From Eledone cirrhosa (taxonomy: Eukaryota), in NCBI GenBank assembly GCA_964016885.1, contig OZ024759.1:8618001-8682000 (forward strand): a DNA stretch of 64,000 nucleotides, written 5' to 3'. The translations under genes were made by a program, and so were the position numbers. The notes beneath the pieces are model-generated. The model saw only the letters and a list, made by a program, of their open reading frames with translations. It had not been told where the DNA came from and did no database searches. Of this stretch, positions 44,230 through 61,394 are shown one piece after another; position 1 is the stretch's first letter, and each line of letters starts with the position of its first letter.

Positions 44230-44560
44230 ATTGAAAAAGTGGAGAATAACATGGTCAACAGTACAAAAAAAGGGATTTATTTACAGTCTAACAATTGTTT
44301 CACTGATTAAGTTGTCTAAAAATTGCTGAACACCTGGAGCTGTGCCACTCAATTTTAAATACGTTGTTAGCTTAACCAGATCATCAGAGAAACCGTTTCT
44401 CTGATGATCTGGTTAAGCTAACAACGTATTTTAAATTGAGTGGCACTGCTTCTAGCGTTCAGCAATTTTTAGACAACTTAATCAGTGAAACAATTGTTAG
44501 ATTGTAAATAAATCCCTTTTTTTGTACTGTACTGTTGACCATCTTATTCTTCACTTTTTC

Positions 44561-44563
<3 letters not shown>
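44230..44563. repeat. Near-perfect 334-bp palindrome; each arm carries a hammerhead motif (44398-44501 plus, 44287-44390 minus)
   Basis: Arms of about 165 bp around a 1-nt centre at 44394; TCT-CTGATGA-TCTGGTTAAG...CTTAATCAGT-GAAAC-AATT-GTT-AGA. Confidence 0.85.
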
Positions 44564-44593
<30 letters not shown>

Positions 44594-44992
44594 CAGTGAT
44601 GTATTTGTTTTGCAAGGATATAAATCAAGTGTTGAAACATATTGTTATACAACACACAAGGGATGGTGAGGTAGTGTGTCGACCTACAGACAGATCCGGT
44701 AGGATGTCAATAGACAGCATGCCAAACTACATCAAGGCGATACAACCCCCACCTCTTCATCTTGAATGAAACACCACCACATACACATGAAAAATACATG
44801 TTATCTCTTTAGCATTTAAACCGCCCATATTTGGCCTGAATTATCTCTCATTTTTCTGTTCAAACCGGCCGCTCATACTGATGTTAAGGTATTGTTCTCA
44901 AAATAAATATCAAAACCTCATAGATTCGATATTATGTGAGGTAAAGCCTTTACCATGAAAACAGTAAATAGCAAGTAATGTATATACTAAAG

Positions 44993-45300
44993 CAGCGTTT
45001 CTCAACCTTGTGGAACCCTTGAAATAGGTTCATGTCTCATAAAAATTATTACATACCATTATTAATATCTATCTCTTATATTGACCTAGTTTTAAATAAT
45101 ATAAGGGGTTGAAGCCTTTCTTAAAATAAACAAGGATTTTCCGACATATGCCATAAATGTTTAGTAAAATTATGAATATAAAATTAAACAAAAATTACTT
45201 TTTAAAATACATTAGTTTATTTATCACTGGTTCTCGAGGAACCCCTAGCGTCCTCTTGCGGAATCCTAGGGTTCCGGGGAACACCGGTTGAGAAACGCTG
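44993..45300. mobile_element. Non-autonomous hAT-type MITE
   Basis: 15-bp TIR CAGCGTTTCTCAACC / GGTTGAGAAACGCTG and a perfect 8-bp TSD TACTAAAG (44985-44992, 45301-45308). Confidence 0.9.
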
Positions 45301-45349
45301 TACTAAAGAGTTAAACAGTGATGTTGAAAGAAAAGTGTTTCATACATAC

Positions 45350-45401
45350 CAGCTCCTGCCACGAATTGTCTGTCTGGAGTGATTTCTAAATCATTTACTT
45401 G
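45350..45401 (-). CDS. MLST8: MLST8 coding exon 2 (QVNDLEITPDRQFVAGA-G)
   Basis: 52 nt, TACAG acceptor and GTATGT donor; matches QVNALEVTPDRSMIAAAG. Confidence 0.93.
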
Positions 45402-45645
45402 CTGTAGAATTTAAGTTAAGGAAAGTAATTGGTTCTGTTCAACAATATAGAGAGAGAGAATAAGAAAATACGGAGTAGTTTCAGATGTTAAAGTCCTTTA
45501 TTGATAAGACTGTGATACATATTTCAATGACAACAGTAGCCTTGATAAGGGAACGGGCAAAGATGATATTCAATAACATCATCTATGTCCGGTCCATTGT
45601 TTTAATTTGGATTGCCTCGGGAACGTAACCTTAATATGTATTGAA

Positions 45646-59300: not shown

Positions 59301-59682
59301 AACATCTGTTACTATACACCACCCTATATAACATCTGTCACTCTATACACCACCTTATATAACATGTCACTCTATACACCACCCTATATAACATCTGTCA
59401 CTATACACCACCCTATATAACATCTGTTACTATACACCACCCTATATAACATCTGTTACTATACACCACCCTATATAACATCTGTCACTCTATACACCAC
59501 CTTATATAACATGTCACTCTATACACCACCCTATATAACATCTGTCACTCTATACACCACCCTATATAACATGTCACTCTATACACCACCCTATATAACA
59601 TCTGTCACTATACACCACCCTATATAACATCTGTCACTCTATACACCACCCTATATAACATCTGTCACTCTATACACCACTA
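53355..59682. repeat. 6.3-kb satellite of 31-bp units (with 29- and 23-bp variants)
   Basis: TATATAACATCTGTCACTCTATACACCACCC. Confidence 0.95.
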
Positions 59683-59784
59683 TACAATACCTAACACTGC
59701 TGTATACTACTGTATACTACTAAACACTATTATATAGCATATATCCACACACAAATATGTGTATGTGTGTATATATATATATAT

Positions 59785-60112
59785 GAAAAGATTCAGGACC
59801 CACTCTACTACCCCAAGTATTGAGTATTCAGAGCTGTATGGGGGCCTCCCAAAAGTCAGCTCAAAATTGACACAGAGGGGACTGAGTTTAGTTGGACATG
59901 GTCACCGACATCCAGAGTTGACATTGCACTCAGTGCTCCTGTGGGAGACCCTACATGGACACCCTGGAAGAGGAAGACCAAGGTTAACGTATGTTGATGC
60001 CCTAAGGACAGACACTGGTCTGTTGGAGACGCAGGACATGGCAGCGATAATGAGGGACAGAGACCGCTGGAGAGAACTTGTCCATGGATCTCAGGAATTT
60101 TACCCGCCCTAG
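59785..60112 (+). pseudogene. LINE (RTE-like) extreme C-terminal fragment
   Basis: LVGHGHRHPE...LLWE..HG..GRGRPRLTYVD.L..DTG...MRDRDRWR. Confidence 0.75.
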
Positions 60113-60159
<47 letters not shown>

Positions 60160-60942
60160 TCATCATCATCATCGTTTAACGTCCATGTTCCACACTTGCA
60201 TGGGTTTGGACGGGAGTTTTCCCACTTGAGGCAAGAGTGGTTGTCTTGCTCGTATAGGACTGTCTGGCGGGTTTTCTACAGCTGGATGCCCTTCCTAACA
60301 CCAACCACATTTACAGTATATATATATATACATACTAATTTAAGGATAAGTTCCATTAGAGTAGAAAATAGTTTTATATTTGTCAGGATCCAAGAATTAG
60401 TTAACTGTGGTGGCAGATAGAAATAGGACTGGATGTTGTATCCACTAGAAAGAGGTGTGAAGTACTAGTCTTAGTATAAGCAGCTCAATAAGTTAAGGTA
60501 TCCTAATATATATAATATGTATGATGATTATGTTTCTTAGTAGAGAATGGGACGTTTGCTCAGAGATTCAATAATTCAAATTAAAAGATATATATATAGA
60601 ATGGGGGCACATGGCTTAGTGGTTAGAGCATTGGCCTTGCAATCGATAGATTGTGAGTTCAATTCTCAGACCGGGTGATGTGTTGTTGAGCAAGACACTT
60701 TATTTCACATTGCTACAGTTTACTCAGCTGTAGAAATGAGATGATAGGGGCTGGGGTCTCTATCATTCCACTGCAAAGTGGTCATGTAGGTGCCACGGAA
60801 AAAAGCACCCAGCCCACACTGTAAATGAGGTTGGTGTTAGGAAGGGCATCCAGCTGTAGAAATCAAGCCAGAATCAGTTCCCGTCCCACCTTTGCAAGCA
60901 GGGAAAAGCGGACGTAAAATATTGTTGATGATGATAGAGATA

Positions 60943-61392
60943 AGCCATATATTGTTAGAGAAACACATAGTATATTGTACATATATATAAAACTCACAAT
61001 ATTTAGGAAAAAGTAGATACTTTAGGGTGGAAAAGTTCTTATCTTCCTTACAGTACCGTTTCATAGTTCGTAAACTGAAGCAAAAATTGATCCAAGTAAT
61101 TGATTATTGATTACCAACTATCCTGACAGATTTAAAGATGTTTTCAACTGTATTGGAACTTCTCCAAAGACAATTCCTCTCATGATTAGTTTCACGTCTT
61201 CAGTAGCTTTACCAAAATCAATAGTTGGTAATCAATAATCAATTACTTAGATCAATTCTTGCTTCAGTTTACGAACTATGAAATGGTACTGTAAGGAAGA
61301 TAAGAACTTTTTCACCCAAAAGTATCTACTTTTTCTAAATATTGTGTGTTTTATATATATGTACAATATACTGTTTCTCAAATGACATATGG

Positions 61393-61394
<2 letters not shown>
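60943..61394. repeat. Inverted repeat (about 175-bp arms, 100-bp spacer) with a degenerate hammerhead motif at 61174-61298
   Basis: Arms 60943-61121 and 61221-61394; TTCCT-CTcATGA-TTAGTTTC...GAACTAT-GAAA-TGGTACTG-TA-AGGAA. Confidence 0.8.

Follow-up and report, generated by a model that had tools for sequence, protein, structure and literature searches.

Introduction

Mobile elements that carry type I hammerhead ribozymes have been described from several animal lineages. File S2 of Craig et al., 2021 (PMC8557442) gives the hammerheads of 25 Hydra-clade families of Penelope-like elements (PLEs), including the octopus family Hydra-1_Obim, and the same source places Hydra-clade insertions at (TA)n targets with the hammerhead about 100 nucleotides (nt) from the 3′ end, a typical PLE having an inverted 5′-truncated copy and a one-sided tail of 30–40 bp. 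Penelope of Adineta vaga is reported with head-to-head pseudo-long terminal repeats (pLTRs) and palindromes at the junction (Arkhipova et al., 2013; PMC3846280), and opposite-strand hammerhead pairs 100–700 bp apart have been attributed to truncated PLEs, alongside many solo motifs and weak activity (Cervera and de la Pena, 2014; PMC4209133). Animal retrozymes, by the accounts available, are pLTR-derived units of 51–972 bp (10.64898/2026.07.22.740005) that stand head to tail with a full hammerhead in each (10.64898/2026.07.22.740005; PMC7229834). Here we examine a 64,000-nt stretch of the Eledone cirrhosa genome (contig OZ024759.1, positions 8,618,001 to 8,682,000; hereafter the window), which its predicted exons identify as the octopod lst8 gene, and in which a preliminary description had placed at least five hammerhead loci and read them as families of non-autonomous PLE-derived or retrozyme-like hairpin elements. 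We hold with good confidence that the five loci are decayed, heavily 5′-truncated 3′ ends (pLTRs) of several Penelope-like families, and their fold-back form probably arose during each insertion, as a by-product and not as a fixed hairpin family.

Five loci with a common hammerhead order

We scanned the window with a descriptor for the order stem I, CTGANGA, stem II, GAAA, stem III, UH, stem I′. The descriptor was loosened once the loci were known, allowing a first-pair mismatch, a stem II of up to 130 nt and a stem III of up to 20 nt, and block dinucleotide shuffles were run as controls with the identical loose descriptor. Between 44230 and 61394, 6 type I matches were observed against a shuffled mean of 0.11 (0 of 300 shuffles reached 6), and the whole window held 8 against 0.61 (0 of 100 reached 8); the motif frequency, which the preliminary description had proposed to weigh against shuffled sequence, is thus far above chance. 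Exact-core matches numbered 4 against 0.017 (0 of 300), and a strict scan (60-nt limit on stem II, no first-pair mismatch) returned one locus only. Two of the 8, overlapping matches at 38.5 kb, sit in a (TGA)n run and were discounted as noise.

The relaxed scan reproduced the earlier coordinates of four loci exactly and returned the fifth as 52567–52615, a fuller hammerhead with all three stems where a degenerate one had been described (52571–52600). It also added a copy that the earlier count lacked, a complete minus-strand hammerhead at 44390–44287. The core is exact at locus 1 (both strands) and at loci 2 and 3, with a single core change each at loci 4 and 5; stem II has a basal U·U at every locus except locus 2, which has G·U there. 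Loci 1 and 3 share 14 nt and loci 3 and 5 have a similar stem II; beyond this almost no sequence outside the core is common to the loci, which had rightly been called otherwise unrelated. As far as sequence can tell, the hammerhead-ribozyme motifs of all five loci are genuine and lie in repeated octopod DNA (Table 1).

Individual hammerheads differ in their stems. Stem I of the minus-strand copy of locus 1 can be extended by eye to 7 bp across a 2-nt bulge, and the hammerhead of locus 3 (48531–48566) combines an exact core and U·U with a 2-bp stem II and the stem III ACAAUUGU. Stem III of locus 4 is a 10-nt self-complementary sequence and is better in the left arm. Locus 5 has a stem I of 4 bp, a stem II of 3 bp and a stem III of 5 bp with a 7-nt loop that is not palindromic. 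Its core change predates the duplication, since CAGA is read in both arms. Palindromic, dimer-type stems III had been claimed throughout: three loci have them, locus 5 is closed, and locus 2 is weak (−2.2 kcal/mol).

Searches with the Rfam hammerhead models gave 0 matches at the gathering score in the window, and no hammerhead family stood among the 150 of 178 Rfam matches listed at E ≤ 10, in agreement with the expectation that standard annotation would miss these loci. Matches to Rfam microRNA families were artefacts of hairpins and (TA)n, and a selenocysteine insertion sequence (SECIS) considered inside a long stem II had no Rfam match and was dropped. The weak sixth candidate of Table 1, which may be chance, fails the 4-bp stem III filter and lies about 50 nt from a (TA)n run.

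Table 1. Predicted hammerhead loci and associated features of the window, in window coordinates.
Feature	Coordinates	Strand	Description and basis
Weak sixth hammerhead candidate, may be chance	4082–4197	−	Exact core, U·U, 89-nt stem II with 2 closing pairs only
lst8 (TOR complex subunit), host gene	19988–50004	−	tblastn exon map, exon identity
Locus 1, fold-back of PLE-type 3′ end	44061–44563	.	Centre 44394, (TA)n at both ends; arm identity, repeat depth, exon map
Locus 1 tail	44061–44229	−	About 170-nt 3′ extension on one arm only, up to (TA)n at 44061; high repeat depth
Locus 1 complete type I hammerhead, longer copy	44287–44390	−	Exact core, U·U, 79-nt stem II, stem III ACAAUUGU
Locus 1 inverted hammerhead copy	44398–44501	+	AATAAA behind; scan
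Locus 2, fold-back	45457–45772	.	Arms 45457–45541 and 45688–45772, 146-nt spacer with core; 79/85 identity, repeat depth
Locus 2 type I hammerhead	45646–45720	+	Exact core, G·U, 46-nt stem II (15/17 positions pair), weak stem III; AATAAA behind
Locus 3, 78-nt stub	48522–48599	+	Between two (TA)n runs, no inverted arm; scan, flank analysis
Locus 5, fold-back	52493–52640	.	Centre near 52558, left arm without 33 nt (stems II–III); arm alignment
Locus 5 type I hammerhead	52567–52615	+	Core CAGAGGA (U4>A), U·U, closed 5-bp stem III
Locus 4, fold-back, full extent	60327–61449	.	Arms 60933–61121 and 61221–61405, 172/190
46-nt segment	60344–60389	−	80% like 61120–61165 just upstream of the locus 4 hammerhead; blastn E 5e-4
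SINE-like repeat, tRNA-like head	60601–60937	+	Later insertion in the locus 4 left arm; not part of the PLE end
Locus 4 type I hammerhead	61174–61298	+	Core CTCATGA (G5>C), U·U, 94-nt stem II

Head-to-head arms, one-sided tails and (TA)n flanks

Inverted arms were taken from self-BLAST, an inverted-repeat tool having been swamped by the (TA)n arrays. Loci 1, 2, 4 and 5 are head-to-head fold-backs with their 3′ ends outward, which bears out the earlier placing of four loci in or between inverted repeats; the locus at 48531 is the one without. Arm identities are 159/175 at locus 1, 79/85 at locus 2, 172/190 at locus 4, and 25/25 with an inner 17/21 at locus 5. The arms of the fold-backs diverge by 7–10%, or very roughly 10–14 million years on the scale that PMC13282606 provides. 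A one-sided 3′ tail is clear at loci 1 and 4, short at locus 5 and likely at locus 2, and the distance from the cut site to the shorter 3′ end is 35–100 nt at all five loci.

The flanks are mostly microsatellite, as had been noted: a dinucleotide run lies within 5 nt of 7 of the 10 element ends, compared with 2.2% of background positions, some of these ends being defined by the run itself, and three of the four ends that the shorter arm fixes independently abut such a run. Inversion breakpoints fall 3–10 nt before stem I at loci 1 and 5 and at the hairpin tip of stem II at loci 2 and 4, so that in all four fold-backs the breakpoint is inside the hammerhead or at most 10 nt away. This clustering may be an effect of choosing stubs that bear hammerheads.

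The element spans given earlier were too small, 44061–44563 and 60327–61449 being the full extents of loci 1 and 4. At locus 1, the tail is joined to the hammerhead in sequencing contigs (record 1 of contig set X1, 44061–44248; record 10 of set X2, 44147–44362), and the right copy of locus 2 may extend to about 45840. Both arms of locus 4 pass through an internal (CT)n(AT)n into a common 28 nt (60571–60598 and 61422–61449, 28/28), and because the arms continue into these identical 28 nt, the structure spans 60327–61449; its right arm ends at an (ATC)n tail. The short interspersed nuclear element (SINE)-like repeat within the left arm, around which the locus 4 flanks rejoin, has further copies in the window and a weak Rfam tRNA match (60612–60669; 24 bits, below threshold).

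Copies of loci 1 and 2 in sequencing reads

Read data on 44061–45800 comprised the low-depth contig sets X1 and X2, from one sample, and two restriction-site-associated DNA sequencing (RAD-seq) runs, X6 and X7, all at 80% likeness. The RAD-seq runs carry a restriction-site bias and were left out of the junction estimate, and opposite-strand joints at 45541 were not counted as new junctions. Loci 1 and 2 are high-copy repeats along their entire length, with each listed variant present in dozens of contigs; depth gives no copy number here, the single-copy exon bin being at 0. Coverage drops from the 3′ side toward the hammerhead, from 110,000 to 7,500 at locus 1 and from 33,000–35,000 to about 9,000 at locus 2 (X1). 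At the locus 1 hairpin centre it is 196, compared with 7,398 at 44334 (X1), and 224 compared with 11,027 (X2), and thus 2–3% of the family contig depth crosses this centre, the single junction examined. Since depth at the centre is 2–3% of that 60 bases away, most copies are without the locus 1 junction. Among the 40 listed of 306 read differences, four are stem changes in locus 2; all four keep the pair and three turn a G·U into a Watson–Crick pair.

Comparison with described hammerhead elements

The loci resemble the endonuclease-bearing (EN+) PLEs of the Hydra clade in having a type I hammerhead with U·U or G·U near the 3′ end, a (TA)n setting and the same host group (PMC8557442, as far as its families are listed). 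By our own count of File S2 of that paper, U·U stands at the stem II base in 14 of 25 families and G·U in two, and all 25 of 25 have an AC..GT stem III with a loop of at most 3 nt. The Hydra-clade stem III, of 4–5 bp with almost no loop, is similar to that of some loci here, AC..GT being found at loci 1 and 3 and in the left arm of locus 4. A (TA)n insertion combined with a U·U/AC..GT hammerhead is present at loci 1, 3 and 4 and partially at loci 2 and 5, a combination that is not exclusive to the clade. The clade is further recognized by the phylogeny of its RT and by a C-terminal GIY-YIG without CCHH; no ORF was recovered here. Penelope-13_HM, as shown in PMC8557442, also has a 5′-truncated inverted copy. 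The longest stem II in File S2 measures about 50 nt and is flagged there as deviating, short of the 79 and 94 nt seen here, and the hammerhead listed for Hydra-1_Obim differs from our loci in its stems. Six probes taken from the loci gave 0 of 6 matches in the PMC8557442 supplement, where line breaks could hide a match, and the probe GAAACAATTGT gave 0 matches in that supplement.

Other PLE families share further parts of this architecture. The pLTR pairs of Adineta vaga Penelope have the same head-to-head inversion, junction palindrome and tail on a single arm; as described in PMC3846280 they bound copies bearing open reading frames (ORFs), whereas here the ends alone remain. Minimal PLE hammerheads are likewise characterized by a short palindromic helix III that needs a dimer, although the consensus presented in PMC4209133 has G10.1–C11.1 plus one extra base where four of our five loci have U·U, and some stems II here are very long. 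Cephalopod Naiad PLEs also insert at (TA)n with inverted 5′ copies; the Naiads covered by PMC8557442 are without full hammerheads, Naiad_Ovul and Naiad_Esco having ‘half-core’ motifs 35–50 nt apart. A Naiad origin was considered and rejected, as the Naiad_Obim 3′ end is unlike the loci by eye and no probe matched in the supplement.

Animal non-LTR retrozymes, as they are presented in 10.64898/2026.07.22.740005, are like the loci short, non-coding, of pLTR origin and equipped with a type I hammerhead. Retrozymes are head-to-tail tandems, whereas the loci here are single or head-to-head, and a direct tandem of full hammerheads was found at none of the five. None of the loci therefore qualifies as a retrozyme. 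The proposed link to PLEs and to their inverted, truncated ends fared better: it is favoured by the U·U/AC..GT architecture, by the one-sided tails and by the linkage of this hammerhead type to a reverse transcriptase (RT) in a public contig, described below.

Search for parent ORFs

The preliminary description had suggested looking for linked PLE ORFs encoding RT and a GIY-YIG nuclease. None was found beside the loci in the window, and the same hammerhead type lies behind an RT ORF elsewhere. Within the window, two candidate peptides, 44061–44201 (−) and 60327–60464 (−), have no homologue among longer proteins and no Pfam match, and the former has no Atlas match. A blind scan of public metagenome contigs (11 of 64 parts) and viral contigs for the pattern of loci 1 and 3 gave 155 matches, none with blastn likeness to the window loci. 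Stems I and II are present in 4 of the 155, and the 151 others were set aside as chance.

An RT-motif ORF (692 aa; 213–2490) was seen in just one of the 155, contig L065, the best of the four; it ends 160 nt before a compact U·U hammerhead. Its Atlas neighbours, at 0.97–0.98, are eukaryotic RT-type proteins with the families HTH_animal, DUF8422 and RVT_1. From its motifs and from these neighbours, we take it to be a PLE RT. L065 is a metagenome contig of 24% GC whose RT ORF has no visible endonuclease. It is likely an endonuclease-less PLE of a microbial eukaryote, and it shows that the same hammerhead type accompanies elements of this sort and occurs outside the Hydra clade as well.

Origin of the loci

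Taking the loci as decayed PLE 3′ ends, a mechanism can be outlined that would account for their forms. Both strands of (TA)n DNA would be nicked by a PLE protein that combines a GIY-YIG nuclease with an RT and is encoded at another site, and each free 3′ end would prime reverse transcription near the RNA 3′ end, two alternative start sites giving rise to the one-sided tail. Synthesis of both cDNAs would break off early, within the structured hammerhead or close to it, before the two were joined head to head. The outcome would be tail-out inverted arms with a spacer (loci 2 and 4) or with nearly none (loci 1 and 5), and a single cDNA would give locus 3. On the parent RNA, the hammerhead would be cut after the UH triplet only as a stem III dimer or with the help of protein. 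A purified Poseidon PLE protein is reported to cut AT-rich DNA and to extend both strands, and the two internal sites at which it starts define the tail (PMC11167929, in the assays it describes).

Several observations weigh against this origin. No PLE ORF remnant was found beside any locus; a search of the window with the L065 RT was negative (best E 8.7), and this RT itself has no Pfam or PDB match. The Hydra-clade PLEs of PMC8557442 bear ORFs and have a stem II of at most 24 nt, compared with 46–94 nt at three loci here, and the tails of about 170 and about 250 nt contrast with the 30–40 nt that the same source gives for PLEs. U·U also occurs in the axolotl retrozyme hammerhead depicted in PMC7229834. 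All four stem changes in locus 2 are one-sided transitions, with no true covariation among the 40 of 306 differences listed. Lastly, 4–6 contigs do cross the locus 1 centre, compatible with a small shared-junction subfamily, and assembly graphs handle palindromes badly, which makes junction depth good evidence and not final evidence.

We regard it as possible, if somewhat doubtful, that the parents were themselves short non-autonomous PLE derivatives of a few hundred bases, mobilized in trans, with the fold-back still made at insertion; this is compatible with an origin from PLE 3′ ends. The long tails, the lack of ORF remnants and the precedent of retrozyme units derived from pLTRs are in line with it, as is the far end of the long arm of locus 4, which repeats 46 nt found upstream of the hammerhead (score 47; the highest of 2000 shuffles was 32) and hints at the terminal redundancy of a non-autonomous unit of about 500 nt. 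Against such a unit, the two 46-nt copies are about 80% alike compared with about 90% for the arms, the far copy stops before any second hammerhead and may be a related but older copy that served as target, and no locus has a direct hammerhead tandem. A codon-position bias in this repeat (6/0/3) was not significant over six frames.

The arms could also have been inverted by snap-back self-priming of a single nascent strand at a short palindrome, the model set out in PMC3846280. We consider snap-back a reasonable contender that falls somewhat short of being probable, and on the narrower matter of whether a two-primer step or snap-back applied, we see the balance as even. Self-priming would suit the palindromic, nearly spacer-free centres of loci 1 and 5, and also the short arms of loci 2 and 4, whose ends fall at the hairpin tip within stem II; the element spacers of 146 nt at locus 2 and 99 nt at locus 4 are not given by a simple snap-back, and the in vitro extension of both nicked strands by PLE protein (as reported in PMC11167929) speaks for two primers.

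The loci are, by contrast, improbable as fixed hairpin families replicating as fold-backs with a common centre, which is how they had first been described. Four of the five are fold-backs, and many of the contigs over the locus 1 centre have another central letter, as copies of such a family might; 97–98% of the depth nevertheless misses that centre, the 3′ ends of the arms are unequal, depth falls from one end, the geometry differs from locus to locus, and PLE insertion is known to yield pLTRs paired head to head. Miniature inverted-repeat transposable elements (MITEs) or other DNA-transposon fold-backs with chance hammerheads, or assembly artefacts, are scarcely credible: the genome is AT-rich with many inverted repeat pairs and the hammerhead folds are not minimum-energy, yet no shuffle in 300 reaches the observed count, the fold is common despite the lack of sequence likeness beyond the core, arm ends are asymmetric without symmetric terminal inverted repeats, so little of the depth crosses the locus 1 centre, and arms that differ by 7–10% with indels, one of them holding a later insertion, are not those of read chimeras.

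Predicted folding and activity

At each of the five loci the monomer hammerhead fold is less stable than the minimum-energy fold by 5–9 kcal/mol, and free folding of 10 stretches gave z-scores of −1.5 to +1.7, with no unusual stability. Stem III self-duplexes reach −6.4 kcal/mol at loci 1 and 3 and −7.0 and −12.0 kcal/mol in the arms of locus 4, energies that fit the dimer cleavage via stem III covered in the review PMC6765202. For a Poseidon PLE, cleavage by the hammerhead is reported only with protein, and the hammerhead is dispensable for insertion in vitro (PMC11167929, in its assays).

The copies in the window are probably inert where they stand. In the lst8 pre-mRNA a single hammerhead, that at 44390–44287, is both complete and in sense orientation; its antisense arm is transcribed first and would trap it in a long hairpin, which we predict at −236 kcal/mol on the lst8 strand for locus 1. 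The hammerheads of loci 2 and 3 run antisense to the gene, and those of loci 4 and 5 are changed in the core. The affected positions, G5>C in locus 4 and U4>A in locus 5, are ones that we take to be conserved in the hammerhead core.

Novelty and significance

The kind of element is already known, and the unusual point is the long stem II inserts (46–94 nt) in three of the ribozymes. The families appear to be undescribed. Among the matches listed for octopus hammerhead literature, only Craig et al., 2021 was relevant, and the main text of an O. vulgaris repeat paper (PMC13282606) has neither ‘hammerhead’ nor ‘ribozyme’, although its repeat library may already hold the families. The supplements of PMC4209133 or other surveys of PLE hammerhead variants may already cover long stems II and core variants.

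Five loci in 17 kb, none detected by Rfam, suggest that cephalopod hammerhead counts are far too low, while a single window gives no genome-wide figure; the giant squid genome paper lists 235 hammerheads (PMC6962438). Short inverted pairs without ORFs would also offer a large natural sample on how PLE inversions form and on the role of the hammerhead, both of which are left open in the accounts of PMC8557442 and PMC11167929. Octopus is reported to have an exceptionally high long double-stranded RNA potential and hyper-editing, and Penelope is heavily edited in lizard (PMC5625713, as far as its comparisons go). Intronic PLE fold-backs are a plausible candidate source of edited octopus hairpins, a link that is only suggested by what PMC5625713 presents.

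A wider scenario seems to us unlikely though worth stating. Octopods would harbour undescribed high-copy PLE-derived families, some of them non-autonomous (about 500 nt, as at locus 4), with structured stem II inserts of 46–94 nt that escape standard descriptors; the ribozyme fold would set both the RT stop and the inversion, the head-to-head layout would always cage the ribozyme in read-through RNA, and copies would pile up in introns and supply hairpins for A-to-I editing.

Host gene and other features of the window

The window DNA is repeat-rich and animal. A tblastn search with P0002 and P0003 placed nine lst8 coding exons between 50004 and 19988, on the minus strand, and the exon at 30940–31086 has 94–96% identity to the lst8 proteins of Octopus sinensis and Argonauta hians. 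Intron 1 of lst8 contains loci 2 and 3, intron 2 contains locus 1, and loci 4 and 5 are both upstream of the first lst8 coding exon. Locus 2 ends about 52 nt from the exon 2 acceptor (45405–45456), and its hairpin could affect splicing.

Other repeats share these introns. An unbroken 1099-aa ORF of an RTE-type long interspersed nuclear element (LINE), with an endonuclease and an RT that has an internal PHD-like finger, lies in an lst8 intron at 23255–26554 (+), antisense to lst8, and decayed kin of it lie at 6378–8535 and 62352–63530. A further fold-back, at 31592–32352, consists of a repeat one arm of which carries an internal 72-nt tandem array; a very high-copy piece at 44807–44961 is related to it. 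A MITE-like element with terminal inverted repeats and moderate repeat depth lies at 44985–45295. The remnant of a Tc1/mariner-type transposase (51800–52470; weak DDE_3 match, E 0.002) ends right before locus 5, and a 6.3-kb satellite at 53355–59680 consists of about 210 copies of a 31-nt unit with strong strand skew. Finally, two short interspersed repeats occur in many copies and both orientations (15897–16138, 41416–42309 and 48290–52914), making for further potential hairpins in lst8 introns.

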